DNA of 64,000 nt, taken from Chitinophagaceae bacterium. Its GTDB lineage: Bacteria; Bacteroidota; Bacteroidia; Cytophagales; JASGCU01. Position numbers and translations under genes: made by a program. The stretch covers positions 9,107-73,106 of the forward strand of contig JASGCU010000002.1 of assembly GCA_030053935.1 (NCBI GenBank), given 5' to 3'. Each line of letters opens with the position of its first letter. The first letter of the stretch is position 1. Below the pieces are notes generated by a model, which did no database searches, was not told the DNA's origin, and saw only the letters and a program-made list of their open reading frames with translations. Positions 18,887 through 57,234 of this stretch are shown in pieces.

Positions 18887-20314
18887 TTAGGAATAATTAT
18901 AAGGTTTTACCAATGTAAGTTTTTTTTGTTCGGCTATTGTAAGCATAAAGTTATAGGCATCGTGAAAGTTATTTTGGATTATTCCTTCTAATATGGCTTC
19001 TTTTATGGCTTCTTTTATTTCGCCGATGATTTTAGAGGGTGGTAAATTATATACTTGCATAATAATTTCTCCTGATATAGGGGGTTGGAAGTTACGTATA
19101 TGGTCTTTTGCTTCTACCTCGATAATTTTTTGTTCTACGTATTGAAAATTTGCAAGGTATTTTTGAACTTTGTTATGGTCTTTGCTGGTAATATCTGCTT
19201 TGCAAAGTTTCATAAGGTCATCTATGTCTTCGCCTGCTTCGAATAAGAGTCGTCTGATAGCAGATTCTGTTACTTCTTTTTTTACGAGAGCTATCGGGCG
19301 GAGGTGAAGGCGGACTAGTTTTTGGACGTATTGCATTTTAGAATCCATGGGTAATCTCATTCTGTGAAATAATTTTGGTACCATTCTTGCTCCTTTTTCT
19401 TCGTGTCCATGGAATGTCCATCCGATTCCGGGATAGAATTTTTTAGTGAGAGGTTTTGCAATATCGTGTAATAAGGCAGCCCATCGGAGCCATATACCAT
19501 CACTTACTTTTGATATATTTTCTACCACTTTGAGGGTATGGTAAAAATTATCTTTATGTCCTTTTCCTTCTACTTCTTCTACTCCTTGGAGGTTTGCCAT
19601 TTCAGGAAATATAATTTGTAAAACACCGGCGCTGTATAATAGTTTGAATCCTAATGATATTTGGGGTGATAGAATGATTTTATTGAGTTCTTCTGTTATT
19701 CTTTCAGCAGATACAATTTTTAATCGTTCTTTATTATGAATGATACCGTTCATAGTTTCGTGGGATATATCAAAATTGAGTTGTGAGGCAAATCTTATAG
19801 CACGCATTATTCTGAGAGGATCATCGGAAAAAGTGATATTAGGGTCGAGGGGTGTTTTTAATATTTTTTTTTGTATATCTTCTATTCCGTTGAAAGGATC
19901 TATAACCTCTCCGAGTGTTTTTTTTTGTAGGCTGATAGAAAGAGCATTTATAGTAAAATCGCGTCTTTTTTGGTCATCTTCTAATGTTCCAATTTCTACT
20001 GTTGGTTTTCGGGAGTTTTTTTGGTAGCTTTCTTTTCGGGCGGTTACGATTTCTAATTGGTATTCTTTCCATTTTATTTGTGCTGTTCCGAAGTTTTTAA
20101 ATATAGAAATATGGACATCTTTTCCTAATTGTTTTGCTATATTTTCTGCTATTTTTATACTGTTTTCGGTGCATACCAAATCAATATCTTTAGATCCTTT
20201 ATTAAGGAATATATCTCTTACATATCCGCCTATTATGAAACATTCTTCTTCGTCTATAGCATTTGTTATAATTTCAAATATGGGGTCTTGTTGTATTCGT
20301 TCTCTCAGGTTCAT
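18887..20314 (-). CDS. cca: tRNA nucleotidyltransferase (CCA-adding)/poly(A) polymerase family with HD domain
   Basis: 475 aa. GGYVRDIFL..SKDIDL head domain, RRDFTINAL, and HD region ALLHDIAKP. Confidence 0.8.
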   Translation of the reverse strand: MNLRERIQQDPIFEIITNAIDEEECFIIGGYVRDIFLNKGSKDIDLVCTENSIKIAENIAKQLGKDVHISIFKNFGTAQIKWKEYQLEIVTARKESYQKNSRKPTVEIGTLEDDQKRRDFTINALSISLQKKTLGEVIDPFNGIEDIQKKILKTPLDPNITFSDDPLRIMRAIRFASQLNFDISHETMNGIIHNKERLKIVSAERITEELNKIILSPQISLGFKLLYSAGVLQIIFPEMANLQGVEEVEGKGHKDNFYHTLKVVENISKVSDGIWLRWAALLHDIAKPLTKKFYPGIGWTFHGHEEKGARMVPKLFHRMRLPMDSKMQYVQKLVRLHLRPIALVKKEVTESAIRRLLFEAGEDIDDLMKLCKADITSKDHNKVQKYLANFQYVEQKIIEVEAKDHIRNFQPPISGEIIMQVYNLPPSKIIGEIKEAIKEAILEGIIQNNFHDAYNFMLTIAEQKKLTLVKPYNYS

Positions 20315-23300: not shown

Positions 23301-24095
23301 TTCTATCGCTCGGTCATAATCTTTTTTTTGAAAATAAGTACTGCCAATGTGGTAAATTGCTTCAGATTCTTCAGGCGAATAGTGGAGGATTTTTATATAT
23401 ATATCCATTGCTTCATCTAATTTGTACATATCAAAATAGATAAGCCCTATTGCATAGAGAGCTGGTAAAAAATTAGGAGTATTTTTAACAATGGTATGGA
23501 GTACATCTAAGCTTTTATTTGTTTGTCTAAGTTCAAAAAGACATATACCTATACCATAGCATGCTGATGGAGAATGAGGATAATCTTTTATTATTACCTC
23601 AAAACAACCCATAGCTTTTTCATACTCTCGCTTACGCATAAGATCCATTCCTTGATTATATTTTGGGTCAAATATACGCAGCTCAGATTCTAAACCCTGT
23701 TCGTTTTTTTCTAAATATAATGCAGGCATTTTTGGAAAATATACTTTTCTATTTTTATTTTTTTTGAAGGAAGTGTCTTCAAAAGACATTGTTTTTTCAT
23801 TCCCTATAGATTTAATAGAAGCATCTTCTAGTTTGTCAGTTTTTGTTATATCGTTTTTTTTAGAGTATGTTTGGTATTTTGAAGTAACGACTGTTGTATT
23901 ACTCTTTACTCTTTTTAATACATTTTTTTCTTCTTTTTCTGCAAAGGGAGTATCAGAACTATTAGTAGGATATTGATTATTATTTGTAGAAATTTGTTTT
24001 GCATCATTTTCTTTGATAGAGTTTTTCCTAAAAAAGAAATGATAGAGCATAATAAGCGCTATGCATAAAATTCCGGATATTATTATAGTTGTCAT
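20325..24095 (-). CDS. membrane-anchored giant TPR-repeat protein
   Basis: 1256 aa. N-terminal TM helix (TIIISGILCIALIMLYHFFF), an about 130-aa polar linker, then a near-uninterrupted run of 34-residue TPR units (..YDKAIEYF.K.L.I.P....A.Y.IG..Y..) down to the C-terminus. Ends 10 bp before cca. Confidence 0.85.
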   Translation of the reverse strand: MTTIIISGILCIALIMLYHFFFRKNSIKENDAKQISTNNNQYPTNSSDTPFAEKEEKNVLKRVKSNTTVVTSKYQTYSKKNDITKTDKLEDASIKSIGNEKTMSFEDTSFKKNKNRKVYFPKMPALYLEKNEQGLESELRIFDPKYNQGMDLMRKREYEKAMGCFEVIIKDYPHSPSACYGIGICLFELRQTNKSLDVLHTIVKNTPNFLPALYAIGLIYFDMYKLDEAMDIYIKILHYSPEESEAIYHIGSTYFQKKDYDRAIEYFQKSYDISKNIDTLYQIGLVYSKKQEYDKSIQYYQTVISHKPRHYPAYYHLGTSYIKLNEYSKSIYYFDKVIEISPVFYSAYFQKGLAHLNQNNYEESLECFKKVIDIVPNNYDALYSIGLIYFKKEDDDNALIYYKKALEIKSNSVDCLYYMGFSFFRKGMNDQALEKFKKIISLNDTFYSAFFYIGLLYYKKNQYDKAFFYFQETFRLNNTFYSAAYYMGMICFHKETYNEAIDYYKTILEQKSDHIDAKIQIALCYYKLNQYEESLYFYEQIKESKISPFVFFQIGTIYFYKKMYEDAYKNLEQSYLLDPSLTESYYYISLVYWEKAEYKQAIEWMEKYYITNNHSNTLRKIGKMAFLSKNHEKSIECYVKYLSTNPQNIFIWNTIGIVYAEKQDYAHAIEYITHIKMHAELHILSFNIGSIFLKEKEFEKAIASYETSIQQKNNFYDAYNKIGFIYYRSKSYDKAIEFFEKSLEIEPENTEALFYLGNIFFEKGYKQKALGYYKKIGNTTLGFGEYFYELSESPKDTDISIPPTSKETILHEVYQKLALVFSQDKETQEKALFFYEKLLEFNTYKYDILYSIAQIYSQNDKIDEAIEYYLKIISLNPNLHETYCHVGKLYLKKQDYEKSIEYLENYVERRPDAKEVLKDIAFIYTQQKQYEKATIAYKKIIVLEPKNITILQEIGNMYMFQMSDPSNAINFYKKILDISPDNISAISKIGIAYFKRQDYVNAMRYCKRSIIIDPKNVDTLFALGVIHLEKSEYDKAIEFFTKIVSINPNHKESIFQIAKTYEQKKEPHKALLYYKKTIELDPTFYEILEKIGEIYETISDYDNAIKYYTQGMELFPNSESITLKMGNILLLTKEYDKSMEYLKKVSHNQQNLILPIFNIGLIHFYKGEYDKAIKCYKKILETDPKSAESYNQLGLIYHKKKEYYNAIECFNKSIQIKKNYPDPHKNIGNIYLEKGESEKANQFFKEAEKIKMLNKK

Positions 24096-35962: not shown

Positions 35963-38900
35963 TTATTTCTCTAAATTTATTTCTAATCCCAATCCTCTTA
36001 ATTCTTGAATAAGAACATTGAAAGACTCAGGGATTCCAGGAGTACGTAAACTTTCACCTTTTACAATGGATTCGTATGCTTTAGCACGGCCTACCACATC
36101 ATCAGATTTTATAGTTAATATTTCTTGGAGTATATGTGATGCTCCAAAAGCTTCTATAGCCCATACTTCCATTTCTCCAAAACGTTGCCCCCCGAATTGT
36201 GCTTTACCACCTAAAGGTTGTTGTGTAATAAGTGAGTAGGGACCTATAGATCTTGCATGCATTTTATCATCAACTAAATGTCCTAATTTAAGCATATAGA
36301 TAACACCCACTGTAACAGGTTGTTCAAACTTTTCCCCGGTCAGTCCATCATATAGATAATCTCTCCCAAAGGGAGGTAACCCTGCTTTTTTTAATTCATT
36401 TGACACTTCTTGCAATGTTGCTCCGTCAAATATATGGGTTGTATATTTTATTCCTAATTTCAATCCGGCCCATCCCAAAACAGTCTCGTATATTTGACCT
36501 ATATTCATACGAGATGGAACACCAAGTGGATTTAAAACTACATCTACAGGGGTCCCATCTTCCATAAAAGGCATATCTTCCTGTCTTACTATTTTTGCTA
36601 CTACGCCTTTATTTCCGTGTCTTCCTGCCATTTTATCTCCTACTTTTAATTTCCGCTTTTTGGCAACATATACTTTTGCTAATTTTACTATTTCCGTGGG
36701 AAGTTCGTCTCCTGTTTCTAAAATATATTTATTTTTTTTAAAATTTGCAGATATTTCAGCCCATTTTTTAGAATAATTATTTAGTAGCGTAACTATTGCT
36801 TTGTTTGTTTCTATATCATCTGTCCAATTTTCAAAAACAACATCTGCTATAAGATTTGTTTCCTCAGGAACAGAATAACCGCTTTCATCTCTATAATTAT
36901 TTTTATTAGGGAATAGCATTTCTGTTATTAGATTTCCATTCAATTTTACACCATGTGAAATCACATCATTACTATATCTATGTTTTATTCCTTGGCAAAT
37001 TTTACCATCAAGCAATAATGTTAATTTTTCTATGCATGCACGTTTTAACTTCGATAGATTTTGACTGTACTTATCTTTCAATAAATCCATATCTTTTTTT
37101 ATCTTAGTTTTATTATCTTTCTTTATACGTGAAAAAAGTTGAGTATTTATCACCACTCCTCTTAAAGAAGCAGGGGCTCTAAATGAAGCATCTTTCACAT
37201 CTCCTGCTTTATTGCCAAAAATAGCTTTTAGTAATTTTTCTTCCGGAGAAGGATCAGATTCTCCTTTTGGGGTTATTTTTCCTATAAGTATATCACCTTC
37301 TTTTACAGGGGAACCAACCCTTACTATTCCGTTTTCGTCTAAATTTTTTATAACCTCATCGCTCATATTCGGTATCTCAGAAGTTAATTCTTCTTCTCCT
37401 CTTTTCATATCTTTTACTCCTAATCTAAATTCTTCTATATGAACAGAAGTAAAAATGTCTTCTGAAACAACTTTTTCTGATATAACAATAGCATCCTCAA
37501 AATTATAACCTTGCCATGGCATAAACGCAACTTTTAGATTGCGTCCTAAAGCAAGCTCTCCTTTTTCGGTAGCAAAACCTTCGCATAAAATTTGTCCTTG
37601 TTTCACTTCATCTCCTTTAAAAACAATAGGTCTCATATTTAAGACAGTATCTTGGTTAGTCCGTCTATATTTAGGTAGAGAATAAACCTGTTCATCATCA
37701 TCAAAAGAAACTTGTTTTTCGAAATCAGTTCTATAATTTTCTATAATAATTTTCGTAGAATCTACATATTTTACAATTCCATCTTTTTCAGATATTATAA
37801 AATTTTTAGAATCCATGATAAGCTTATGTTCAAAACCGGTAGCAACAATAGGGGCTTCTGGTAATATTAAAGGAACTGCTTGCCTTTGCATGTTAGACCC
37901 CATAAGTGCTCTATTTGCATCGTCATGTTCTAAAAATGGAATAAGAGACGCACCTATAGAGACTATTTGATCGGGAGCAATATCCATATAAGAAATTTTA
38001 TCTGGGGATACTAATGGAAAATCCGCACCGTATCGTGATTTGATTTTCCCATCTAAAAAGAACCCTTTATTATCTAATTTCATGTGGGACTGGGCAATAT
38101 AACAATTTTCTTCTTCTTCTGCAGATAAATAAACTATATCATCCGTGACCTTACCATTTTTTACCTTTCTATATGGGGTTTCTATAAATCCCATAGGATT
38201 AATTTTTGCATAAACACAAAGAGAAGAGATGAGTCCTATGTTAGGACCTTCGGGGGTTTCGATGGTACATAAACGTCCATAATGTGTGTAATGAATATCA
38301 CGCACCTCAAACCCAGCTCTATCTCGAGAAAGCCCACCAGGCCCCAAAGCCGTTAGTCTTCTTTTATGTGTGATTTCTGCTAAAGGATTGGTTTGATCCA
38401 TAAATTGAGAAAGCTGACTCGTACCAAAAAAAGAATTTATAACCGTGATAAGAGTTTTAGGGCTTACTAAATCAATAGGTTTAAACTCTTCAACATCTTT
38501 CATATTCATTTTATCCGCAATAATTCTTGCCATTCTGGATAATCCTACATAAAAAAGATTATATAATTGTTCACCAACAGTTCTTACTTTTCTATTCCCC
38601 AAATGATCTATGTCATCAACTATTGCTCTAGAGTTTACTAATCCTACAAGATACTTTATTATTTCAATAATATCATGAACAGTAAGAACAGATTCTGAAT
38701 GTTTTTTTGAATCCATTTTGAGTTTTTTATTAATTCTATAGCGACCTACTTTGCCCAAATCATATCTTTTTTCGCTAAAAAACAAATTATGGATTATATC
38801 TTTTGCAGTTTGTTCATCTGGCGCTTCTGCATTTCTCAACTGTCTATATATTTGTTCAACTGCTTCTTTTGTAGAATTAGAACTATCTTTTTGTAAAGTA

Positions 38901-39841
38901 TTATAAATAATAGAATATTCACTCAAGTTTATATCTTCTCTATGAACGATAATATAAGAAACTTTTGATTCTAATATTATAGATATGTCTTCTTCCTTTA
39001 GTATATAATCTCGTTCTAATTTAATCTGGTTCCTTTCAATAGAGATTACTTCGCCTGTATCTTCATCAATAAAGTCTTCCATATAAGTGTGTATAACTCG
39101 TGCTGCAAGCTTTCTTCCTATATTTTTCATCAAATCATCTCTCGTTGCAGGAACATCTTCAGAAAGTCCAAAGATATCTAATATACTTTTATCCGTACTA
39201 TATCCTATAGCACGTAATAGAGTAGTTATTGGAAACTTTTTTTTTCTGTCAATATAAGCATACATTATATTATTGGCATCTGTAGCAAATTCTATCCATG
39301 CTCCTGTAAAAGGTATAACACGAGCAGAATATAATTTTGTTCCATTCGTATGTCTGCTTTGAGCAAAAAACACACCAGGAGATCTGTGTAATTGTGAAAC
39401 TATGACTCGTTCAGCTCCGTTAATAACAAAAGATCCTCTCTGAGTCATGTAAGGTATGTTTCCTAAAAAAATCTCTTGTTCATAAATAGTAGGTTCTTTA
39501 TTGTCAAAAGAATAAGAGGTTACTTTGAACTTGACTTTGAAAGGAACAGAGTAGGTCAGCCCTCTATCTATGCATTCCTCTATTGAATATCTAGGAATGT
39601 CAATAGAATAATCTACAAATTCTATAGTAAAATTTTTCCTTGCATCAGAAATGGGAAATATATCACAAAAAAGCTGGTATAAACTTTGCTTTTTTTTATC
39701 TTGATTTGCTATGTCTAATTGAATGAATTCTTGAAACGAGGAAGTTTGAATATCTAAAAAATTAGGGTAGTTAAATTCTGTTTCTTTCGGAATCTTTACT
39801 TTAGCAAAATTTATTCTTTTAGTGTTATGTAATGTATTCAA
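35963..39841 (-). CDS. rpoB: DNA-directed RNA polymerase subunit beta
   Basis: 1292 aa. [31 protein letters not shown] motifs. The start codon appears to be TTG, so the exact start is uncertain. Confidence 0.97.
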
Positions 39842-42926: not shown

Positions 42927-42999
42927 CACGGGAGGAGGGACTCGAACCCCCAACCTACGGTTTTGGAGACCGGCACTCTACCAATTGAGCTACGCCCGT
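42927..42999 (-). tRNA. tRNA-Trp (anticodon CCA)
   Basis: Hand-folded cloverleaf: acceptor ACGGGCG/CTCCCGT (one C-U mismatch at 6:67), D arm GCTC-AATTGGTA-GAGT, anticodon loop CTCCAAA, T arm GGGGG-TTCGAGT-CCCTC. Canonical tuf-tRNATrp-secE position. Confidence 0.85.
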
Positions 43000-44322: not shown

Positions 44323-44394
<72 letters not shown>

Positions 44395-44441: not shown

Positions 44442-44514
44442 AGCGGACAACGAGGTTCGAACCCGCGACCTGCAGCTTGGAAGGCTGCCGCTCTACCATC
44501 TGAGCTATGTCCGC
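44442..44514 (-). tRNA. tRNA-Gly (anticodon TCC)
   Basis: Hand fold: acceptor GCGGACA/TGTCCGC, anticodon stem GCAGC/GCTGC with loop CTTCCAA, T loop TTCGAAC. Confidence 0.88.
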
Positions 44515-46274: not shown

Positions 46275-46310
46275 TATTATTACTTTTTTTAAGTGTGATT
46301 ATAATATAAA

Positions 46311-46687
46311 TATAGGTCTATAAGCCGGATTCTGTTCTCTTGAGAGTTTCTATCATTTATCTGGGTTATTTGTTGCCAAACAACTCTATCGACCTACCCA
46401 ATCCGAATTTATTTGAAACAAATAAACAAGCGAGCAGCTTTTTTTCGGATCCTATTTGGTCTTTCAACTCGTAAGGTTTATCATGCTTTTGATATCACTA
46501 TCAAAACGGTAAGCTCTTACCTCACCTTTTCACCCTTATCTTAAAAAGACGGTTTTCTTTTCTGTGATACTGTCTGTTATTTTGTTTTGATGACAAAATA
46601 CCTTCCCGTTAGGAAGTACGATGCTCTGTGTTGTCCGGACTTTCCTCTTCATTTATGAAGCGATAGAACGACCTATATTTAATATTA
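46311..46687 (-). ncRNA. rnpB: RNase P RNA, bacterial type A
   Basis: The minus strand contains GAGGAAAGTCCGGAC (P4 5' strand), GATAAGGGTGAAAAGGTGAGGTAAGAGCTTACC (P10-P12 region) and ACAGAATCCGGCTTATAG (P4 3' strand). Terminal P1 pairing tataggtc/gacctata. Ends approximate. Confidence 0.92.
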
Positions 46688-47090: not shown

Positions 47091-48131
47091 TTATTTAATT
47101 TTTTTTATGCTATAAATAGATGCTACGGCTCCAAATGAGAGAGTTGCTAAGTTCACTCTAAAGGTATCATCTACATAAGATCCTTTTTGTATCAGAGTTT
47201 GATTATTGTATCTCTCACTAGGGTTCATAAAATCAGTAGTCATATGTTGGTATTGAAATTCGGTAAACAGATGCCATTGTTTATTGATGGGTATTTTTAT
47301 CCCTATTCCTGCAAAAATGCTGATATTTATAGATTTTCTGAGGGTGGCTTCTTGTTTCAGTAAGTTTTCTCCGAATATATTTTGGATTTTTCCTCCGCCT
47401 GCTCTGTTTTGTAGGTCTGCTGTTGATGCGAATAGGTAATTAAGGTTTGCTCCGATGTTTATATAGGGTTGTATTTTTTTAAGACTTATAGTATATTCTA
47501 AAAATAATGGGGTTTGGAGTATATAATCTGTTTCTGTGAGGTCTGTTTTGTAATCTATAGGTATTGATATGATAAATTGTTGCCACATAAATCCTATTCC
47601 TGTTCCTATGGTGATGTTTTTTAGAATATCTTTTTTTATGAAAAGATTTATTCCTGCTCTGAAAGAAGGTTGAATTTGTTTTTGAATTTCGTTGGTGTTG
47701 TGTAATCCGAAAGAAGCGTATGAAATGATATGTGGATAGTTTCCTATGGCTTTCATTCCTACCTTGAGTATTGGTTTGTATCTAAAAGTTTCTTTTAAAA
47801 AAAAGAGTTCTTTTTTATCTATATCGGGATTAAATTCGTGTTCTTTATCCCTTTGGAGGATTTTTTTCATCCATTTGTCTGCTTCTGCATATTTGTCTTC
47901 ATATAAAAGAGACATTATTACGATTTTAGTGGCATTTATAAGTTCTTCTTTTGTTAATACATTTTTAGAATCGTTGAGGCAGTTTTCGAGTTTTTTAGGT
48001 ATTTCAGATATATGTCCAGTGATATAAAGTTTTTCTGCGTCTTCTATTGTTTGAATGCAAGATATTTGTTCTTGTGCAAATGCATTATAAATAAAATGAA
48101 GGGATAGAAATGTTATTGCTAATGTTCTCAT
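47091..48131 (-). CDS. outer-membrane beta-barrel protein (OMP_b-brl_2-like) with N-terminal helical/TPR-like domain
   Basis: 346 aa. Signal peptide MRTLAITFLSLHFIYNAFA-QEQ, an about 110-aa helical region, then alternating-hydrophobicity strands (ITIGTGIGFMWQQF, IQPYINIGANLNYLFA, ISIFAGIGIKIP, WHLFTEFQYQHM). Confidence 0.65.
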   Translation of the reverse strand: MRTLAITFLSLHFIYNAFAQEQISCIQTIEDAEKLYITGHISEIPKKLENCLNDSKNVLTKEELINATKIVIMSLLYEDKYAEADKWMKKILQRDKEHEFNPDIDKKELFFLKETFRYKPILKVGMKAIGNYPHIISYASFGLHNTNEIQKQIQPSFRAGINLFIKKDILKNITIGTGIGFMWQQFIISIPIDYKTDLTETDYILQTPLFLEYTISLKKIQPYINIGANLNYLFASTADLQNRAGGGKIQNIFGENLLKQEATLRKSINISIFAGIGIKIPINKQWHLFTEFQYQHMTTDFMNPSERYNNQTLIQKGSYVDDTFRVNLATLSFGAVASIYSIKKIK

Positions 48132-48140
48132 ATAGTTTAT

Positions 48141-51100
48141 TTATTGTTTATTAGGACATGTTTTTTCGTATAAAATATTTTCTCCTACATATTGTTTCCA
48201 TTCATTTTGGGTGAGGTTTCTGGATTTTGCACAGAGTTTATCTGCTATAAAATCAGGTTCTATCGGCCATACTTTCATAAAATCATCGTTACTTCCTGTG
48301 ATAATTTGTTTTGTTTTTTCATGAAAAATTCCATCGAATACCCATTCTTCTGATTCTTTTAATACTATTGGTGGGTCAGATATGTATTGCAACACCCATA
48401 GTTTTGTAGTATGATCTAATCCAGTGCTGATTAATAACGAGTTGTCAGAATTAAATTCTATATTGCTTACTCTGCTGGAGTGAGCATTTATATCAGAAAA
48501 TAATTTATTTGTTTCCATATCCCATATATATATTTTTCCGGATTTATCACCAAAAGCGATATATTTTTTATTTTTACTCATTGATACGCATGTAATAGCG
48601 TTGTTATTCACAGTATTTTTTGCGATAGGGATTGTGTATTTATAACGGAGGGTGTTTTTTTCTGTTATATCCCATATCATAATTTTTCCATCTGCAGAGC
48701 CGCTTATTAACATTTTATCATCACTGCTCATATCTATAACTTTTACATCTTCATGTTCTTTTAGTATTTCTATTGGTGGGATTGTAGAGTTTTCATAGTT
48801 GTATATGCGAATATATTGATCTTCTCCGATAGATATAAATTGTGGTTTATTTTTGAAGAATACTATATCATTAATATTTCCGTGGTGTTCTTCTAGTATG
48901 GTTGATTTTTCTGTTTTTAGGTTTACGAGTATTATATTTTCTTTAGTTCCTACGGCGAGGTATTTATCATCTTTACTAATAGCGAGAAATTTATTTTCGA
49001 ATTTATTTTCTAAAATTACTTTATAGCTTCTTTTTGGGTCTTGTATATTCCATTTTATTATTTTTCCATCACCTCCTGTGGAATAAACAGAATTTCCTTC
49101 ATTTGTTGCGACTATACTGTATACTCCAGATCCTCTAGAATGCCCTTTCCATCTTATAATATCTATTCCTTCGGTTGTTTGCCAAGCGTTAAATAATCCC
49201 ATGTATACATCGGGGTTATATTTTTTATAAGAATATTTGCGGTCGTAGAGAAATGCTTGTTTTGCAATAGCAGATTTTAGTTCGGGGTCTCTTATTTGTT
49301 CTACTCTCACGGCAAGAGATTGTGCGAGAGATTGGAATCTTAGTTTTTCGGCAATTTCTCTTTCTCGGCGGGCTTCGTTTGCACTTTGTTCTGCTTGTAA
49401 TTGTTGTATTCGGGCTTCTTCTTCTTTTTGTTGAGCAATGAGTGCGGATTTTTGGGCTTCTTCTTCTTTTTGTTGGGCAATTTTACTTTGCCGAGTAGCT
49501 TCTTCTTTTTGTTCTTGTGCTATTTTCGTTTGTTTTTCGGCATATAAGCGAGCTTCTTGTGCTTTTTTAGTTTCTTCTTCTGCTTTTTTTTTGGATATTT
49601 CTGCAGCTTTTGCAAAGCTAATTGCTTTTTCAGATTCTATCACTGCTTTTTTTCTTTGGATTAGTGCTTCTTTTGTAGCTTCTGTAGATATTTTTAACTG
49701 ATCTCTGGAATAGATAACTAATCCTACTAAAACTATTGCAACAGCAGCGCATATTATAGATGTTATTCTAAAAGCTCTAATTTTATTTTTTTGTTTTATG
49801 AGTTTTATTCTTTGTTCTTCTTCAAATTCTCTTTGTGAGGTTTCTAAAAACACCATAACTCTTTCGTATGCTTTATGGTATCTTCGTCCCCAAAAGGGGG
49901 TAGGATTTATTTCTTCTTTCCAGTTGAGAGCGGCTTGTAGATGAGGCATTTTCCAGAGGTCTCCTTCTCCTGTTACAAATTTTTCAGCGGCATCGGATAA
50001 TCGCAAATACATATCTACGGATTTTGATTCTTCTTCTAACCATACTTTTAGTCTTGTCCATATTCTCATAATACTTTCATGTGAAATATCTATAAGAGTT
50101 TCTCCATCAATAGGGTAGTTATGGGGAGGCATGAGAAGAGATCTGGATGGGTCTCTGAATAGATTGATGACGTTTATAACTTTTATTGGGGTAGTATTAG
50201 CTATTTTTGCGATGGTTTTTAGTTTTGTTGGTCTTCTAATCCCTTTATTTTCTGCGTTTTTTTCGGTGAGGGTTTTGAATAGTACTTCACATATTTTTTT
50301 TTCTTCTTGAGTAAGAGAATCGTATGCCTCATTGGCATGTTCGGATAGGGCTTCTTTTACGGTACCAATTGCTATGTATTCAGATATGTCTATTGGATCA
50401 TTTGTATGTCCTTTAGTATCATTCCAATATTGCCATGTGCGCATCAGGGCATGTTGGAGGACAGGGAGTTGGTCGGGGTTATCGCCGATATCATTCAAAA
50501 GTTGTTGTGTGAGCCGAGGAGTTATAGATCCTCCGACGACTAAAATAGGACCTTCTATGGCTAGTTTTTTTTGTTCTCGATTCATTTGTGGTATAAGATA
50601 ATGGCTTTCGTTTATTTTCTGTGTGAGATTTGGGAAAAAAGCACATTCACCTATAAAATCGGAACGCATTGTTAATGCAATATAAATAGATTCATTTTGA
50701 ATTTCTAATGCTTCGGTGATGAGGGATATAAAGTTATTCGCTTCTTCTTGTGAATAGGCTGAATTATCAGTAGTTCTGTATCTAAAAATTTCTTCAAACT
50801 GATCTATAAGTATAAAATAGTTTGTGTTTTTATCTTTTTTTAAATAATTAATAGCATCTACAAGTCCTAATGAGCTATTTCTTAATATGGAAGAGATGAC
50901 TGTTTGTTTTGTCATTTTTTCTTCATTTGATTTTTTTTTATACTCGGGATGTAGAGAGCTGATAAGTGCTTCTGCCATATTTTCTATTGGTGATATACCG
51001 GGTCTAAAAATAATAATATCCCAAGAAGCGCCTGCTTTTGTAACAAATCCTCCGTATAAAATTGGAAGAAGTCCACAATACATAAGAGAAGATTTTCCAC

Positions 51101-51296
51101 TACCGGATGATCCTAGTATTGCTACAAATCTATGTTCTGCTAATCTCATAAGTACTTCATCACTTTGTCCTTCTCTTCCAAAAAATAAATGAGATTCGTT
51201 AATAGTAAATGGTCGTAATCCTGGAAATGGGTTTATTCCCTTTACTTGAATAGATATATTTTCCGTAGTGTACGATGTCGTTTTTGGATTATTCAT
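48141..51296 (-). CDS. nSTAND-type P-loop NTPase - single TM helix - coiled coil - WD40 repeat protein
   Basis: 1051 aa. N-terminus NPFPGLRPFTINESHLFFGREGQSDEVLMRLAEHRFVAILGSSGSGKSSLMYCGLLP (Walker A) and YFILIDQFEEIF (Walker B), as in the novel-STAND-1 family. Hydrophobic ITSIICAAVAIVLVGLVIY (DNA 49712-49768). Lys/Glu/Gln coiled coil. At least 5 WD40 units (e.g. LISGSADGKIMIWDI, IAFGDKSGKIYIWDM, STGLDHTTKLWVL). Confidence 0.8.
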   Translation of the reverse strand: MNNPKTTSYTTENISIQVKGINPFPGLRPFTINESHLFFGREGQSDEVLMRLAEHRFVAILGSSGSGKSSLMYCGLLPILYGGFVTKAGASWDIIIFRPGISPIENMAEALISSLHPEYKKKSNEEKMTKQTVISSILRNSSLGLVDAINYLKKDKNTNYFILIDQFEEIFRYRTTDNSAYSQEEANNFISLITEALEIQNESIYIALTMRSDFIGECAFFPNLTQKINESHYLIPQMNREQKKLAIEGPILVVGGSITPRLTQQLLNDIGDNPDQLPVLQHALMRTWQYWNDTKGHTNDPIDISEYIAIGTVKEALSEHANEAYDSLTQEEKKICEVLFKTLTEKNAENKGIRRPTKLKTIAKIANTTPIKVINVINLFRDPSRSLLMPPHNYPIDGETLIDISHESIMRIWTRLKVWLEEESKSVDMYLRLSDAAEKFVTGEGDLWKMPHLQAALNWKEEINPTPFWGRRYHKAYERVMVFLETSQREFEEEQRIKLIKQKNKIRAFRITSIICAAVAIVLVGLVIYSRDQLKISTEATKEALIQRKKAVIESEKAISFAKAAEISKKKAEEETKKAQEARLYAEKQTKIAQEQKEEATRQSKIAQQKEEEAQKSALIAQQKEEEARIQQLQAEQSANEARREREIAEKLRFQSLAQSLAVRVEQIRDPELKSAIAKQAFLYDRKYSYKKYNPDVYMGLFNAWQTTEGIDIIRWKGHSRGSGVYSIVATNEGNSVYSTGGDGKIIKWNIQDPKRSYKVILENKFENKFLAISKDDKYLAVGTKENIILVNLKTEKSTILEEHHGNINDIVFFKNKPQFISIGEDQYIRIYNYENSTIPPIEILKEHEDVKVIDMSSDDKMLISGSADGKIMIWDITEKNTLRYKYTIPIAKNTVNNNAITCVSMSKNKKYIAFGDKSGKIYIWDMETNKLFSDINAHSSRVSNIEFNSDNSLLISTGLDHTTKLWVLQYISDPPIVLKESEEWVFDGIFHEKTKQIITGSNDDFMKVWPIEPDFIADKLCAKSRNLTQNEWKQYVGENILYEKTCPNKQ

Positions 51297-51306
51297 AATT
51301 TTGTGT

Positions 51307-52794
51307 TTATTTAGATTCTATAGTATCTATAAAAGGAAATAATATACTTTGGTAAAAATCGCTGTTGTTATAAGTAACGTGTAGTAATTTGTTTTCAAAT
51401 TTTTTAGGGTCGCTATTATTGTTAATGTAAATTCCGTGTTTTTTTGTAGAATATGTTCCTTCAAAAGCTGGGGTCCTGTGGATATCTTGTATTTTGGATA
51501 AAACCCATTGTTCGTTTATTTTTCCATATATTATAAAAGAAGCATCACATTGCTGTAGGTATATTCTATGTAGATTTCGCATTTCTATTATATTTGTTTC
51601 AAAATTAGGTGTAATAATATGAAAGTCCATATCTTTAAAAAACTTTACTATAGGAATAGCAATATCGGTATCTATTTTGTCAAAAATAACATAAATACTT
51701 TTTTTTTTTTCTATAGCAGATGTTTGGTGTCTTTTTTTTTTAAATTGCTCACCTAAAAAGTGTATTTCTTTTTTTATTAATTCTTTAAGTTCGGCAATAT
51801 TTCCTTGGAATATATCTAAAAAATAGTCTGTATTAATATCTGTTTTTATTCTATCTATAAAAATATCTTGTTTTTCATAGTGGTTTTGAAAATTTTGTGG
51901 TATCCATATTATTTTTTTTAAAAAGTGATTTGTTTGTTTTCGTATATTTTGAGAATAGGATTCTACTATGTTGTATTGTAGTTCTGCAATAGATATTTTA
52001 TTTTCTTGTGCTTCTGTTCCATAATATTCGCCTATTAGATGGATAGACATAATGCTTTTTTGTATATTCTCTATAATAAATGATTCAATTTCTTCATTTT
52101 TTTGGGGTAAGGGAGTTGTTGGTAAAACATTATACCCATAACGTACCAGTTCTCGTTTTATAGTATCTCTTTGATTTACAAGGTCATGTTCTGTAATTGA
52201 TAAGTATATTGTTTTTTCTTTTTCAAGTTCTTCTTTTTCTGGATATGTATTTTTTGATTGTTGATTTTCGTGTTTTAAATTATGGTAAATATATTTTATA
52301 TGGTTTGCAATATCTAACATGTTCATCCAGTAAGGGTTTTTTGACCCTTTTCCTAAAAAAGGAATAAGTTCTTCTATTTCCCTTGTAATGTTATTTATTA
52401 TATAAAATTCATATTTTTGTGTGTTTTTATACTCATTTAGGAATACATCTTCTTCTATTGGTTTTTTTAATACTTCAATTATTGGATATAATTTTTCAAG
52501 AGAGCGGTTTTCTTCTGTGTGGTATTTTTCTCCAAATTCTTTTATTTTTTGAACAAGAGTATTTTTTTTATTATAACCAGTGGATACAATAATTATACAA
52601 ACAAGTGTGTTTTTCCATGTTTCTTTTTCAATAAAAGCATCAGATACTAGTTTTATTGTAAGTGGGACAGGCATTATTTGTATCAAATAAGATCTTAAAA
52701 TATCCTCAAAACTTTCTATCCATAGAATTTCTTCTTTTTTAGTGTTTCTTTCTGGTTCTGTATAACATATAATTATTTCTGTTCCTATCTGCAT
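51307..52794 (-). CDS. hypothetical protein with three tandem TIR/DUF4062-like modules
   Basis: 495 aa. A thrice-recurring strand-acidic-helix-strand pattern (TEIIICYTEPE.., TIYLSITEHDLVNQRDTIKRELVRYGYNVLP.., SIYVIFDKIDTDIAIPIVKFFKDMDFHIITP..). The fold assignment is inference from pattern only. Confidence 0.45.
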   Translation of the reverse strand: MQIGTEIIICYTEPERNTKKEEILWIESFEDILRSYLIQIMPVPLTIKLVSDAFIEKETWKNTLVCIIIVSTGYNKKNTLVQKIKEFGEKYHTEENRSLEKLYPIIEVLKKPIEEDVFLNEYKNTQKYEFYIINNITREIEELIPFLGKGSKNPYWMNMLDIANHIKYIYHNLKHENQQSKNTYPEKEELEKEKTIYLSITEHDLVNQRDTIKRELVRYGYNVLPTTPLPQKNEEIESFIIENIQKSIMSIHLIGEYYGTEAQENKISIAELQYNIVESYSQNIRKQTNHFLKKIIWIPQNFQNHYEKQDIFIDRIKTDINTDYFLDIFQGNIAELKELIKKEIHFLGEQFKKKRHQTSAIEKKKSIYVIFDKIDTDIAIPIVKFFKDMDFHIITPNFETNIIEMRNLHRIYLQQCDASFIIYGKINEQWVLSKIQDIHRTPAFEGTYSTKKHGIYINNNSDPKKFENKLLHVTYNNSDFYQSILFPFIDTIESK

Positions 52795-52815: not shown

Positions 52816-55800
52816 TTAAATTATTTGAATGGTATTTTCAAATACTTTTAGATGTTTGGTTTCTAAAAATATTGCGGTTACTATCTCTTTATATTTTCCT
52901 GCTGCTTCAAAAAAGTCTACTGCGGGTAGCACTAAAAGTTCTGTTTTTTCTTGTGCAATATATCTATGTTGATTCGCTTGATATTCTAGTATGGTATCCA
53001 ATCCTATAACAGAACCTGAGTATAAAGTATCTAATATTTGTTCGCTATCATTATATAAGAGAACTTCTCCATGTAACAATATGTAAATAAACTCATTTTT
53101 TTTTATGTTTTGATCTACGAGTATTTTTTTTTCGTTTAGTATTACGTATTTAAAAGATTCTATTATATTTGCAAGAATGTCTTCGGGAATATGTTTAAAT
53201 AGGAAAATTTTGCTGATAAATAATATTTTTTCGGATAGGAGCATTATTTTTTTTTTGGTATTTTCTTTCCCATAGGATTGTATTTCTGTACGTGTGTTAT
53301 TTGATAATAAAACTTTATCTAATTCTTTTTTGATGTTTATATCTAATAATTGAGAATAGTATTCGTATGCTCGTTTATCCTTACTATAAATTATATAAGC
53401 GCTTGTCTCGTATATTAATTTGTTTTTATGGAATATACAAGCAGATATACTTTGATTCAGAGGTACGTGTTCCATTTCTTTTAGTGCTAATAGTGCTAAT
53501 ACTTTTATCCAGTGGTTTATATTATTGTATCCTCTGTTTATGATAGATAATAAAATATCTTCATTATTTTTAAAATGTATTATTGGATAATATGTTGATA
53601 ATTTGTCTACTTTATTAGATATATGGTTATCATCAAAAATAATAAATGCTACTTCTTTTAATTCTACGTCTAAAAAAATATCTAGCATTTCTAATGCGAA
53701 AGTTATACCTTCTATATTTTTTTCATTGATATTTTCTTTTACTAAAATAACAGATTGAGTATCGTATAGTAGTATCATGAGATTAAATATTTGCTCATTA
53801 TTTTTCTCATTTTCGTTTTTTAATGATTTTATTATTAATCGTGTTAGATATTCTGTTTCTTCGTGATGACGGAATTTTATAAGGGATTGTATGCAATTGA
53901 GATTCCATACTATTTTAGAAAACAGAGATTGAATTTCTGTTTTTATTCGTTCTCTTTGAATTCCTTTTGCTTTATAGTTTAAAAAGCTTAACCAATAAAA
54001 AACTTCATTTACAATAATTTTATCATGAAAATCTGTTTTTTTCCATAATCTATTAACACAATCTTGGTTTCCAATGCGTCCTAATATTTGAACTATGAGA
54101 AGCATGGTTGCTCTATTTTGTTCTGTTCTATAGAAGGCGGCGTCTATCAAATGAACGACGTTTTCTTGAAGTATAAGGGAAGATTTTGCGAGAAGCGAGT
54201 AAGTATGGGTAGAAAGGTTGTCTATAAGTAAATGGTATAATTCGTTGTAGTGTAGAGATGTGGTGCTGATAATGGCTGCTTTTCTTACATCAGGGTCTGA
54301 ATCTTTTAGGAGATCTATGAGTAAGAGCAAATGCTTATCGTCTTTTTTTATTTGTGAAAGCAATTGAGATAAAAATATTTTGTTTTTTTTGTTAGTTGAT
54401 TGTGTTATTTTTTTTGATTCCGTATAATCTAAAAGGTATGATCTATTATGAGCGAGGTATTCTACTAATTTTTTAGATTGTTCTTTTAATACGGGTATTG
54501 TTTCTTTTTCAGCAAAGATTTTAATTTCTTCTAAATAATGGAAATTATTATACTCAAAGCATTTGGTGTATATAAATTCTCTTATTTTTATATTATCAAA
54601 TTCCAAAAGATATATGAGGTATTTTTTATAGAGAATAACATCTATTTTTTCTAATATATTGAGTCCTATAATAGCATTATTGTAGTGATTTTCTTGTAGG
54701 TTCAGAATAATATTATTCATTATATATGCCTCTATATTATTTTTATTGACATTTTCTATTTCTTGTTTTTGAGACATAAGAGACCGCTTAATAGCTATTT
54801 TATATTCATCATACAAGAGTGATGCTAGGATTAATACGGTTACTAAAAGGATAATATTTATGTAAAAATAATGGATAGTTGTAAAAAAATTTAAGGATCC
54901 TAATCCTAATAGTATAATTCCTAAAATAAAACTCGATGATTCATTTACAACTCCTTCTATTCTGGACTGGATGTTTAACCGTATTTTGGGATTTAATGGG
55001 AGAAAACAATTCTTAAAAGAGAGTGTTTCTATGGCATCCTTTGTAGAGCTGCCAAGAACTCTTCCTATAGCAGTAAATAAGAAGAAAAAAAGATAGTCAC
55101 TATCATTTTCTTGATAACCGTATATATGCCCTGTGATAACAGAACCTATACAAAATATGGATAGGACAAAGGGCATAATCATAAGAGATGTTTTTATTCC
55201 AAAATTGGTTAATATATAATCACTGACTGTTGTTTGAATAATAAATGTCATCCCCACGACAGCGGCATCGTAAAAGGATAGAAAAATGGAAAGGTCTTTT
55301 TCTTCTGTGTATCTGATGTCCATCGCTCCTAAATATGCGTTTTCCATCAGCAATTTTGTAGCGGTGGATGCTATGAGAAAAAAACAAAGAATCTTCAAAT
55401 AATTATTACTGAATAAAAAACTATACGATATTTTATTATTTAATTGGGTGCTCTTGTTTTGTATTTTTGTATCTATATTAAAATCTCGAACCAATATAAT
55501 TGAGGTAATAAAGAGGCATAGTATTCCAACCACAGATACATTTAATAGGTTCTCAGTTCTAATGAGGTCAAAATTTTTGAGAAAAGCAATAACCATAAAA
55601 GTAATAAAAGTAGCAGTGAGCTGCCCCGAATCTATCCCTCCTATAAGTCGCTTCGCCGAACGAATATCAAAAATTCTTCCGAAAGCTCCCCAAAAAACTA
55701 AAAATGTTAATGCTTTTATAGGTGATAAAAGAGTAAACATAATAAAGGTTATCCGAACATCACCCGTTAGTTTCAGAATAATCTGTAGTCCGAATACTAA

Positions 55801-56076
55801 TAAAAAAATAAAAAAAAGTATAGTGATAGTTATGGAAGAATATTTTAAGGTATTTTGATAGTGGACAAAGCATAAAGTTCCCATTACTCCTAATACTCCA
55901 CTCACTATTAAAGCAGGAACTAAATATTCTTTCCCTATACTAAGAAGGAATAGAGTTTCTACTCCTACTTGGTACATGGCAATAAATACGCCCATAAAAA
56001 ATCCCATTAAGAGGAGAAGTATGATTTGGTATTGTTGTTCGGGTCTCCCCCCTAAGAATATGATTATTTTTTTCAT
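52816..56076 (-). CDS. TLC (ATP:ADP antiporter)-like MFS membrane domain fused to HEAT repeats and a C-terminal cNMP-binding-like domain
   Basis: 1086 aa. About 11-12 TM in the first 430 aa, with FWGAFGRIFDIRSAKRLIGGIDSG resembling the TLC FW..an.....AKR motif. HEAT-type LLKDSDPDVRKAAIISTTSL. C-terminal FKHIPEDILANIIESFKYVILNEKKILVDQN...FIYILLHGEVLLY...LYSGSVIGLDTIL...TELLVLPAVDFF reads as a CAP-effector (cNMP) fold with an atypical phosphate-binding cassette. Confidence 0.7.
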   Translation of the reverse strand: MKKIIIFLGGRPEQQYQIILLLLMGFFMGVFIAMYQVGVETLFLLSIGKEYLVPALIVSGVLGVMGTLCFVHYQNTLKYSSITITILFFIFLLVFGLQIILKLTGDVRITFIMFTLLSPIKALTFLVFWGAFGRIFDIRSAKRLIGGIDSGQLTATFITFMVIAFLKNFDLIRTENLLNVSVVGILCLFITSIILVRDFNIDTKIQNKSTQLNNKISYSFLFSNNYLKILCFFLIASTATKLLMENAYLGAMDIRYTEEKDLSIFLSFYDAAVVGMTFIIQTTVSDYILTNFGIKTSLMIMPFVLSIFCIGSVITGHIYGYQENDSDYLFFFLFTAIGRVLGSSTKDAIETLSFKNCFLPLNPKIRLNIQSRIEGVVNESSSFILGIILLGLGSLNFFTTIHYFYINIILLVTVLILASLLYDEYKIAIKRSLMSQKQEIENVNKNNIEAYIMNNIILNLQENHYNNAIIGLNILEKIDVILYKKYLIYLLEFDNIKIREFIYTKCFEYNNFHYLEEIKIFAEKETIPVLKEQSKKLVEYLAHNRSYLLDYTESKKITQSTNKKNKIFLSQLLSQIKKDDKHLLLLIDLLKDSDPDVRKAAIISTTSLHYNELYHLLIDNLSTHTYSLLAKSSLILQENVVHLIDAAFYRTEQNRATMLLIVQILGRIGNQDCVNRLWKKTDFHDKIIVNEVFYWLSFLNYKAKGIQRERIKTEIQSLFSKIVWNLNCIQSLIKFRHHEETEYLTRLIIKSLKNENEKNNEQIFNLMILLYDTQSVILVKENINEKNIEGITFALEMLDIFLDVELKEVAFIIFDDNHISNKVDKLSTYYPIIHFKNNEDILLSIINRGYNNINHWIKVLALLALKEMEHVPLNQSISACIFHKNKLIYETSAYIIYSKDKRAYEYYSQLLDINIKKELDKVLLSNNTRTEIQSYGKENTKKKIMLLSEKILFISKIFLFKHIPEDILANIIESFKYVILNEKKILVDQNIKKNEFIYILLHGEVLLYNDSEQILDTLYSGSVIGLDTILEYQANQHRYIAQEKTELLVLPAVDFFEAAGKYKEIVTAIFLETKHLKVFENTIQII

Positions 56077-56118: not shown

Positions 56119-57234
56119 TTAATCCAATAGAGAATCTACATTTTTATAAGGGGTATGAAATGCCTCTGATACGGCTTTATACACAACATGAGAATGGATA
56201 ATATTAAGTCCTAATTTGAGTTCTTTTTGGTCTTTACATGCTTGTTTCCATCCTTTATTTGCTAAATTAACCGCATAAGGAATGGTAGCATTAGTAAGTG
56301 CAATGGTAGATGTATAAGGAACTGCTCCTGGCATATTAGCAACACAATAATGAATTACTCCACTTACTTCATAAATAGGGTTTTGATGGGTGGTAGGATA
56401 GGTAGTTTCAAAACATCCTCCTTGGTCAACAGCAACATCTACCATAACCGTTCCTTTTTTCATAAACGCAAGCATCTCTTTGGTAATAAGCTTGGGGGCT
56501 TTTGCTCCCGGTATAAGAACAGCTCCTATAATCAGATGATGATCTTTGATAAGTTCTCGGATGTTATATTCATTACTCATAAGGGTCTTTACATTTTTTG
56601 GCATTATATCATCTAAATAACGTAATCTTTCCAAACTTATATCAAGTATAGTAACATCTGCGTTAAAACCTGCTGCCATCTTTGCTGCTTCTGTTCCTAC
56701 CACACCTCCTCCTATGATTAATACTTTTGCGGGTCGTACGCCGGGGACTCCTCCAAGTAAAATTCCCATTCCTCCCATTGGTTTTTCTAAATATTTTGCA
56801 CCTTGTTGGATAGACATTCTCCCCGCTACTTCAGACATTGGTACGAGGAGCGGAAGTGATTTGTCTTCTTTTTCGACTGTTTCGTAGGATAAACATACTG
56901 CTCCATTATCTATCATAGCTTTAGTAAGTTTTTGATTGGATGCAAAATGAAAATATGTAAATAACAGATGGTTTTTTTTTACTAATGTATATTCTTCTTC
57001 AATGGGTTCTTTTACTTTTATAATCATTTCAGATTTTTCATATACGGAATCTATAGTAGGTAATACAGATGCTCCTCCTATCCGATAATCTTCATCACTA
57101 TAACCACTTCCCGAACCTGCTGACTCTTGAACGTACACATCATGTCCTCTTTTTATTAATTCTGCAACACCACTCGGAATAGCGCCTACTCTATTCTCAT
57201 TGTTTTTTATTTCTTTTGGTATTCCTATAATCAT
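56119..57234 (-). CDS. ald: alanine dehydrogenase
   Basis: 371 aa. MIIGIPKEIKNNENRVG..., NAD motif VLIIGGGVVGTEAAKMA, ...VDVAVDQGG... Confidence 0.92.
   Translation of the reverse strand: MIIGIPKEIKNNENRVGAIPSGVAELIKRGHDVYVQESAGSGSGYSDEDYRIGGASVLPTIDSVYEKSEMIIKVKEPIEEEYTLVKKNHLLFTYFHFASNQKLTKAMIDNGAVCLSYETVEKEDKSLPLLVPMSEVAGRMSIQQGAKYLEKPMGGMGILLGGVPGVRPAKVLIIGGGVVGTEAAKMAAGFNADVTILDISLERLRYLDDIMPKNVKTLMSNEYNIRELIKDHHLIIGAVLIPGAKAPKLITKEMLAFMKKGTVMVDVAVDQGGCFETTYPTTHQNPIYEVSGVIHYCVANMPGAVPYTSTIALTNATIPYAVNLANKGWKQACKDQKELKLGLNIIHSHVVYKAVSEAFHTPYKNVDSLLD

Follow-up and report, generated by a model that had tools for sequence, protein, structure and literature searches.

The subject of this study is a membrane protein of 1086 residues encoded in a 64,000-nucleotide stretch of bacterial DNA (contig JASGCU010000002.1 of NCBI GenBank assembly GCA_030053935.1, positions 9,107 to 73,106), which is referred to as the window and to which all coordinates refer. 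The protein, hereafter the carrier, joins a membrane domain of the plastid/chlamydial nucleotide transporter (NTT) type, a HEAT-type alpha-solenoid and a cyclic-nucleotide-binding (CNB) fold, and it almost certainly belongs, as a divergent member, to the NTT-HEAT-cNBD fusion family (cNBD, cyclic-nucleotide-binding domain). In the Cytophagales, the carrier gene is the first gene of a co-inherited envelope operon. The favoured reading, which we consider to have about an even chance of being correct, is that a STAND switch in the envelope regulates the protein, which would act as a carrier or transceptor and not as an ATP/ADP antiporter gated by cyclic AMP (cAMP); the operon-coupled mechanism taken alone is one that we infer with somewhat less than even confidence.

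NTT-HEAT and NTT-HEAT-cNBD fusions were reported by Major, Embley & Williams (2017; Genome Biol Evol 9:480; PMC5381601). In that paper, the fusions form a monophyletic, broadly distributed bacterial clade, the data set held 43 Bacteroidetes NTT sequences, and cAMP-dependent tuning of ATP uptake was proposed while the function was stated as unknown; no mention of a STAND/TIR-like operon context was found in the text consulted. The original prediction for this DNA, made from the letters alone, had supposed that the domain combination is present in databases yet uncharacterized, and this agrees with PMC5381601 and with a literature search, in which only that paper and two others that use the term NTT-HEAT came up. 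The window protein resembles the published NTT-HEAT-cNBD proteins in its three-domain order in one polypeptide, in its free-living Bacteroidetes host and in being uncharacterized. It differs in that no database sequence searched exceeds 40% identity to it; furthermore, cAMP binding was proposed there, whereas the cassettes of all Cytophagales sequences examined are devoid of the Arg and that of the window protein also of the Glu. Three points are added here to the literature: contacts to cyclic nucleoside monophosphates (cNMPs), the Arg in particular, that appear to have been lost family-wide, an unconserved ATP/ADP-carrier charge set and a conserved STAND/pseudo-TIR operon.

The carrier gene and its family

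The carrier gene and the parts of its product are as follows.

52816..56076, minus strand: NTT-like/HEAT/CNB-like fusion, complete open reading frame (ORF), 1086 residues plus stop (ORF list, translation)
54757..56076, minus strand: MFS-fold membrane domain, NTT/TLC homolog, consistent with 12 transmembrane (TM) helices, residues 1-440 (family profile, AlphaFold2, Foldseek)
55624..55695, minus strand: NTT signature region (FWG...AKR), residues 128-151, FWGAFGRIFDIRSAKRLIGGIDSG, aligning with CpNTT1 and AtNTT1
53296..54735, minus strand: HEAT/ARM-type alpha-solenoid, residues 448-927 (Pfam HEAT_2, profile matches, AlphaFold2)
52822..53238, minus strand: CNB-fold (cNMP-binding-like) domain, beta-roll plus C-terminal helices, residues 947-1085 (PF00027, profile, AlphaFold2)
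52954..53016, minus strand: degenerate phosphate-binding cassette, residues 1021-1041, GSVIGLDTILEYQANQHRYIA (PKG2 and Escherichia coli CRP alignments)

The ORF list and the translation give an ATG start and exactly this span for the 1086-residue frame. The original prediction had placed the carrier in this interval without a strand; the ORF is real and lies on the minus strand, the translation of which contains the signature region named above, DPDVRKAA (residues ~592-599), FIYILLHGEVLLY, LYSGSVIGLDTIL, LLVLPAVDFF and IGLDTILEYQANQHRYIAQ. A plus-strand reading of the interval was rejected, as its translation is riddled with stop codons.

A chance origin of the frame is excluded by its length at 30% GC and by its homologs: a profile search of 1.84 billion representatives gave 3,634 matches at E <= 1e-30, with at least 150 full-length clusters at 50% identity scoring above 800 bits. 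Relatives were found in at least 526 species in a scan of one genome per species, and the labels of the best 80 of these loci are nearly all Cytophagales or its families. Two contigs of the Logan metagenome encode a protein identical to the window carrier. A database search recovered 51 homologs, nearly all of 1050-1095 residues and with a top identity of 40%, from Cytophagales (Imperialibacter, Marinoscillum, Cyclobacteriaceae); distant NTT-HEAT proteins were also among them. When 40 full-length homologs were scanned singly against Pfam, HEAT_2 was matched by 40/40, cNMP_binding by 35/40, MFS_1 by 11/40 and TLC by 3/40 (best E 5.4e-11). Because the family is large, known and uncharacterized and its architecture is published, the window protein is taken as a further, divergent member and not as a new kind.

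An AlphaFold2 model built on the homolog alignment has a mean predicted local distance difference test (pLDDT) score of 83.8 and a predicted TM-score (pTM) of 0.71. It consists of a helical membrane domain (residues 12-440), an alpha-solenoid (448-927) and a beta-roll (976-1051) followed by two helices. By domain, mean pairwise identity in the family is highest in the membrane part (56%) and lowest in the CNB part (34%).

Membrane domain

The membrane domain is homologous to the plastid/chlamydial ATP/ADP translocases at the level of both profile and fold. A TLC assignment cannot be obtained from the single sequence, since phmmer against PDB sequences left the membrane domain unmatched, an NCBIfam scan of it gave nothing meaningful and Pfam was likewise empty. 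The TLC/NTT-like character that had been proposed for this domain was instead recovered with the family profile and with Foldseek. A profile of 40 full-length homologs matched the PDB entries 9j3n (CpNTT1 of Chlamydia pneumoniae; E 1.8e-18 / 2.5e-16) and 9j3j (AtNTT1 of Arabidopsis; E 3e-12 / 5e-14), and no transporters other than ATP/ADP translocases were among its PDB matches. In a Foldseek search of the PDB with the AlphaFold2 model, ranks 1-4 were taken by 9j3m, 9j3l, 9j3n and 9j3j, all of them AtNTT1 or CpNTT1, with TM-scores on the target of 0.60-0.74 over 470-489 columns (0.73-0.74 for AtNTT1); further MFS carriers ranked below the NTTs with weaker E-values. The domain was thus not assigned to an unrelated MFS family, and a cNMP-binding fold was found at the C-terminus (see below).

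The carrier has in common with AtNTT1 and CpNTT1 (PDB 9j3j-9j3o; PF03219) the MFS fold, these proteins being its top structural and profile matches, and the signature regions FWG...AKR and PLD...K..GK..ID, which align. In the family-profile alignment the FWG...AKR motif lies opposite FWGFANEITKIHEAKRF of CpNTT1, and the counterparts of the signature region in the profile alignments are LMFWGFANEITKIHEAKRFY in CpNTT1 and LFWGFANQITTVDEAKKFY in AtNTT1; W129, G130, R134 and R143 of this region are invariant in the family. The NTT loop PLD..K.KGKAAID corresponds to PLD..R...Q...EG of the family. In contrast to these likenesses, sequence identity is only about 15-17%, the single sequence has no Pfam TLC match and the window carrier has about 650 extra cytoplasmic residues.

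Charged residues that are invariant or near-invariant within helices are R134, K142, R143, D149, D286, D347, K355, R366 and E374. Given these residues and the highest conservation of any domain, the membrane part has the look of a functional cavity that accepts a polar and probably anionic solute. Work by Trentmann and colleagues in 2000 reportedly found the charged residues K155, E245, E385 and K527 of AtNTT1 to be important for transport. An offset of 84 in chain 9j3j puts E, E and K at chain positions 161, 301 and 443, which validates both the residue numbers and the mapping. A census of the equivalents in 65 sequences (the window protein and 64 Cytophagales orthologs; the same 65 are used for the cassette below) gave the following.

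AtNTT1 K155: equivalent falls in the unaligned N-terminal part
AtNTT1 E245: Pro119 in 65/65
AtNTT1 E385: position 245, D/E in 41/65, Glu in the window protein
AtNTT1 K527: position 382, R/K in 16/65 and hence mostly uncharged, Ser382 in the window protein

Two of the three mapped residues of the AtNTT1 charge set are therefore not conserved, and the third is acidic in 41/65; on these grounds the carrier is probably not a canonical ATP/ADP exchanger, and its substrate specificity or mode probably differs from that of plastid/chlamydial NTT1. The movement of ATP/ADP/NAD+, which the original prediction gave for TLC-type carriers, should not be assumed for this protein.

The same unconserved charges could be taken to mean that the membrane domain transports nothing, and is an anchor or a ligand sensor (transceptor) that places the HEAT-CNB scaffold beside the membrane STAND NTPase described below. 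NTT-HEAT genes of other phyla lend this some weight in that they lie in signalling, not metabolic, operons. In a Zixibacteria metagenome-assembled genome (MAG; locus L083), a distant NTT-HEAT gene adjoins a separate cNMP-binding protein and a response regulator; on a metagenome contig (L084/L085), one adjoins a Ser/Thr kinase with a beta-propeller, PilZ, STAS and FHA-GAF-SpoIIE; and on the Runella rosea plasmid NZ_CP030852.1 (L086), one adjoins a TonB-dependent receptor, a histidine kinase, SpoIIE and a response regulator. A carrier-HEAT module wired to signal transduction with an envelope component is thus a recurring theme. Against a non-transporting domain, however, stand its position as the most conserved part of the protein (56%), its full set of invariant charged or polar helix residues and the PLD...R...Q...E loop shared with the NTTs, as in a working cavity, and we regard a mere anchor or sensor as improbable. 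At L084 the NTT-HEAT genes are tandem paralogs.

HEAT solenoid and CNB-like domain

The HEAT-type middle region suggested earlier was confirmed by Pfam, by profile matches and by the AlphaFold2 solenoid. HEAT_2 matches residues 558-623, DSDPDVRKAA included, at 25.7 bits in the whole protein and 28.9 bits in the isolated middle region (cut-off 27.7). The family profile matches alphaRep/HEAT proteins in the PDB at E 1e-12 to 1e-25, and about 30 consecutive helices run without interruption over residues 448-927 of the model. A cytoplasmic location is expected for the HEAT and CNB domains, given that both ends of MFS proteins lie on that side of the membrane.

For the C-terminal domain, both the CNB fold and the non-canonical cassette of the original prediction hold. 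Pfam PF00027 matches residues 984-1058 with 31.4 bits in the whole protein and 35.8 bits in the C-terminus alone (cut-off 27.5). In the AlphaFold2 model, the strands within 976-1051 form a beta-roll, and the alphaP, alphaB and alphaC helices are present. The family profile matches PKG/PKA CNB domains at E about 1e-27 and also the Pycsar effector PycTIR (8jsk, 4.5e-9); the window CNB sequence alone finds PKG2 (5bv6, E 1e-3), with the cyclic-nucleotide-binding domains of the plant AKT1/KAT3 channels next in rank; these channels are not known to be cNMP-gated. Foldseek also retrieves SLC9C1, CNG and HCN structures via this domain.

Alignment with PKG2 and CRP shows that the window cassette retains Gly1025 but has Leu1026 at the Glu position and Asn1035/Gln1036/His1037 at the positions of Arg, Ser/Thr and Ala. 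The Gly-Glu pair that contacts the ribose 2'-OH is thus G1025-L1026 in the window protein, and the Arg-Ser/Thr-Ala stretch that contacts the cyclic phosphate is N1035-Q1036-H1037. Over the 65 sequences, the Gly is found in 62/65 and the Glu in 39/65 (His in 16), whereas the Arg is found in 0/65. With the Arg absent throughout, the Glu in 39/65 and Leu in the window protein, canonical 3',5'-cyclic phosphate binding is unlikely for the whole Cytophagales family, and with it gating by cAMP or cGMP. The idea that the ligand may be something other than cAMP/cGMP, originally raised for the window protein, therefore extends to the family.

In having a membrane transport domain followed by a cytoplasmic CNB fold, the carrier resembles the sperm Na+/H+ exchanger SLC9C1, the HCN, CNG and SthK channels and the AKT1/KAT channels; it differs from all of them in its unrelated transport domain and in the ~480-residue HEAT solenoid between carrier and CNB. 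Like the AKT1/KAT and KCNH channels, which are not known to have the cyclic-phosphate Arg, the carrier lacks this residue, and cNMP gating is therefore unlikely here.

Operon and synteny

Downstream of the carrier gene lie three further genes on the same strand.

51307..52794, minus strand: second gene, 495 residues, three TIR-like alpha/beta modules, of which the middle one is DUF4062/NIR (Pfam, AlphaFold2)
48141..51296, minus strand: third gene, 1051-residue nSTAND1 NTPase with a single TM segment, a coiled coil and WD40 (Pfam nSTAND1 5e-92, WD40)
47091..48131, minus strand: fourth gene, 346-residue outer-membrane beta-barrel with signal peptide (OMP_b-brl_2; weak PorG-like NCBIfam match)

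The carrier is the 5'-most of these four co-directional genes, which are separated by gaps of 21, 10 and 9 nt, and it is accordingly the first gene of a STAND/TIR-like operon, as had been proposed. Synteny was assessed in 67 of the best 80 loci, namely those in which the sequence extends 6.2 kb or more downstream. The order downstream of the carrier recurs, with the nSTAND1-WD40 gene in 59/67, the DUF4062 gene in 45/67 and the barrel gene in 51/67; the adjacency of carrier and STAND spans several families while the other flanks change, and the window's other neighbours (alanine dehydrogenase, Big_5, TPR, NuoN-like) recur in 0/80 related loci. ORF clustering of 43 loci with full flanks revealed a fifth co-directional gene after the barrel in 36/43, which encodes a ~440-residue lipoprotein without Pfam match but with beta-propeller-like repeats (L004:19152-20576 and equivalents), and a small outer-membrane barrel gene directly upstream of the carrier in 22/43 (L006:9024-9839 and equivalents); neither is present at the window locus. 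Pairwise identities of carrier and STAND proteins correlate with r=0.97 over 47 genomes. Cultured bacteria with the cluster include Marinoscillum, Reichenbachiella, Ekhidna and Imperialibacter. A description of a conserved Cytophagales carrier-STAND operon was not found in the literature.

GC content over 47-56 kb is 26-32%, the same as in the rest of the window (~30%), and a recent horizontal acquisition of the operon was rejected for this reason. A consensus scan for promoters and terminators found 49 promoter-like sites where 65 were expected from shuffling, the sigma-70 consensus being unsuited to Bacteroidota, and Rfam found no riboswitch or other regulatory RNA near the operon.

The synteny bears on a further alternative, according to which the carrier is a plain NTT-type importer for nucleotide/NAD+ salvage, its extra domains tune uptake to the energy state and its adjacency to STAND is meaningless. 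The homology to NTTs speaks for such an importer, as do the names given to several relatives by the JGI/NCBI pipelines ('AAA family ATP:ADP antiporter', 'Npt1/Npt2 family nucleotide transporter') and the existence of one subclade without STAND partners. It is difficult to reconcile, however, with STAND adjacency in 59/67 loci over several families whose other flanks change, with a cAMP-contacting Arg that is absent in 65/65 and with the unconserved equivalents of E245 and K527, and we judge it very improbable.

Partner proteins

The second protein of the operon is moderately supported as a set of three TIR-like modules, the profile and Foldseek matches being weak. Pfam DUF4062 matches residues 196-275 (34.9 bits against a cut-off of 24.7), and the AlphaFold2 model (pLDDT 74.7, pTM 0.42) has beta-alpha modules at residues 6-142, 195-331 and 366-475. 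Foldseek of this model retrieved TIR domains at E about 1e-2; in a PDB profile search, the N-terminal module had marginal plant-TIR matches (E 0.07-0.6) and the DUF4062 module had none. Orthologs carry a TIR_2 annotation.

In preprints of 2026, DUF4062 ('NIR') is described as a TIR-like NADase with a catalytic Glu in an S-Y-T...E-Y motif (E87 in Eva01, E108 in PsAvs2 and E1008 in TEP1), and the E-to-Q and E-to-A mutants are inactive. The motif in the window protein reads S268-I-A-E-L-Q273-Y, with Q273 at the catalytic position, and Gln occupies this position in 38/38 orthologs (S-x-x-[DE]-x-Q), which is the same change as in the published E-to-Q dead mutants. In the flanking modules, read by eye, the catalytic-Glu equivalent varies in the N-terminal one and is an invariant Lys in the C-terminal one. 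The TIR-like partner of the original prediction stands with regard to domain similarity, and the triple TIR-like protein would be an adaptor or ligand binder and not an NAD+ hydrolase.

The STAND protein has a Walker A motif GSSGSGKSS (~residues 62-70), a Walker B motif ILIDQFEE (~residue 162) and one strongly hydrophobic segment (residues ~510-532), which is followed by ~150 residues rich in K, E, A and Q and then by the WD40 propeller. The layout of Walker A, Walker B and a single TM segment (about residue 509) is kept in 48/48 orthologs; in the 59/67 loci, orthologs are 37-53% identical over the best aligned segment, and mean pairwise identity is 74% in the NTPase module versus 41% in WD40. 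The single-TM layout, the lack of an N-terminal signal peptide and the more basic TM flank on the N-terminal side predict a cytoplasmic NTPase with the coiled coil and WD40 in the periplasm. The signal peptide of the outer-membrane barrel is MRTLAITFLSLHFIYNAFAQ.

These partners might also suggest a conflict system of the abortive-infection or programmed-death type, essentially the scenario of the original prediction, with the carrier as effector. STAND would sense an invader, the TIR-like protein would make or relay a nucleotide signal, and the CNB-like domain would bind this signal and open the carrier, so that ATP, NAD+ or another nucleotide drains from the cell. The vocabulary is typical of defence (STAND NTPase, WD40 sensor, TIR-like/DUF4062 protein, CNB on a membrane effector): Swarozyc, Evangelion, Vulcan, Vesta and Avs2 all use a DUF4062 protein as NADase effector, in Vulcan DUF4062 is fused to HEAT within one protein, the definition of nSTAND1 came from predicted conflict systems and the family CNB profile matches PycTIR. 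In addition, WD40 evolves faster than the NTPase (41% versus 74%). On the other hand, the 74% identity of the NTPase module is itself unusually high, the change to Gln in 38/38 is the substitution that kills characterized systems and the WD40 sensor is predicted to be periplasmic. Furthermore, PADLOC, in a 2023 version older than the DUF4062 systems, recognized none of the four proteins apart from a 19-residue P-loop match (E 8e-4). The distribution points the same way: the carrier family was found on 1/72,556 plasmids, as a 25%-identity relative (Runella), and was absent from the 2.9 million viral contigs searched, while at least 526 species genomes contain it, the gene order is collinear, the genes diverge together with the genomes, and the composition of the operon is unremarkable against the rest of the window. 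A conflict system is therefore rather unlikely.

Human TEP1 and NWD1/2 and bacterial Avs2-DUF4062, Swarozyc and the NIR-HEAT protein of Vulcan use the same modules as the operon (DUF4062, STAND NTPase, WD40 and HEAT). Unlike in these proteins, the modules of the operon are split over separate genes, the position of the catalytic Glu is occupied by Gln, the STAND protein is anchored in the membrane and its WD40 is predicted to lie outside the cytoplasm, and the cluster appears to be vertically inherited and not patchy.

Proposed function

In the favoured reading, with a STAND switch of the envelope acting on a carrier or transceptor, the membrane domain would carry, or sense as a transceptor, an anionic or nucleotide-like solute, with exchange probably not in the canonical ATP/ADP mode, and the cytoplasmic HEAT-CNB module would set its activity. 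The HEAT solenoid may be a docking surface for the TIR-like adaptor and the oligomerizing STAND NTPase, which would report a periplasmic or outer-membrane cue via WD40; the pseudo-TIR protein would be the adaptor between the STAND switch and the carrier tail. The CNB-like domain may be a lid for auto-regulation, or its ligand may be one other than cAMP/cGMP. That the proteins are physically coupled, how they are placed in the envelope, which way the signal runs and what kind of solute is handled are all inferred from the features described above. The conserved synteny supports the earlier suggestion that the carrier could be the regulated output of the STAND operon.

Several points weigh against this reading. 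Pfam gave no match for the membrane domain, TLC included, even at E <= 10 and with either the whole protein or the isolated N-terminal 449 residues, and among the 40 homologs scanned TLC was matched less often than MFS_1 (three against 11). The AtNTT1 residue numbers have the offset test as their check. The correlation of r=0.97 is equally expected of any two vertically inherited genes. In 8/67 loci, from closely related genomes that include Chryseolinea and Chryseosolibacter, the carrier has no nearby STAND partner (L053, L057, L059, L064, L066, L070, L073 and L078) and is flanked by a hexapeptide transferase, OmpH/Skp, two YceI genes and a DUF5777 outer-membrane barrel; a further 14 STAND-linked loci are without a DUF4062 gene. 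Coupling of carrier and STAND is thus not obligatory. In addition, the DUF4062 catalytic position was mapped by eye from the motif and Pfam coordinates, and the invariant D/E271, two residues upstream of Q273, could rescue activity. The periplasmic placement of WD40 has hydropathy and charge bias as its sole basis, and the literature search turned up no functional study of NTT-HEAT fusions.

A broader and more speculative proposal, which we consider unlikely although worth stating, is that the four genes (five in most relatives) constitute a STAND signalling machine that spans the envelope, is inherited vertically and is particular to the Cytophagales. The signal would pass from the barrel, with the lipoprotein in most relatives, through a periplasmic WD40/coiled-coil stalk and one TM segment to the cytoplasmic nSTAND1 NTPase, the oligomerization of which would be linked by catalytically disabled TIR-like adaptors to the HEAT-CNB tail of the NTT-type carrier. 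If this were true, a STAND/TIR 'immune-type' module would have been co-opted for housekeeping envelope physiology, and a first functional context would be available for the NTT-HEAT fusions of cyanobacteria, Chlamydia and oomycetes. 

Independently of this proposal, the operon supplies concrete partners for the carrier: a STAND NTPase in the membrane, adaptors of the pseudo-TIR type and a protein of the outer membrane. Two negative predictions follow, of no cAMP/cGMP binding and no canonical ATP/ADP exchange. The STAND/DUF4062 module appears to act like a conserved chromosomal system and not like a mobile defence island, which bears on the reuse of immune-type modules.

Surroundings and lineage

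The best non-self matches of the window's RpoB reach 68-71% identity, and those with a name come almost exclusively from Cytophagales; the label 'Chitinophagaceae' of the NCBI MAG therefore looks imprecise and was rejected. Judged from this protein, the source is a deep-branching, low-GC (~30%) lineage related to Cytophagales, which fits the identity of at most 40% between the carrier and all of its relatives.

Other features of the window are listed below.

56119-57234, minus strand: alanine dehydrogenase gene, ending 42 nt upstream of the carrier
46305-46679, minus strand: bacterial RNase P RNA class A (RF00010, 257 bits; Rfam)
42927-42999, 44323-44394 and 44442-44514, minus strand: tRNAs
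35966-39841, minus strand: rpoB
20325-24095, minus strand: 1256-residue protein, almost wholly TPR repeats
18887-20314: PolyA_pol/HD (CCA-adding-type) gene, adjoining the TPR gene
17065-18300: N6_N4 DNA methylase

The alanine dehydrogenase gene may be co-transcribed with the carrier in the window, given the distance of 42 nt and the common strand; the adjacency recurs in 0/80 related loci. The RNase P RNA occupies the 816-nt gap downstream of the operon, after the barrel gene.

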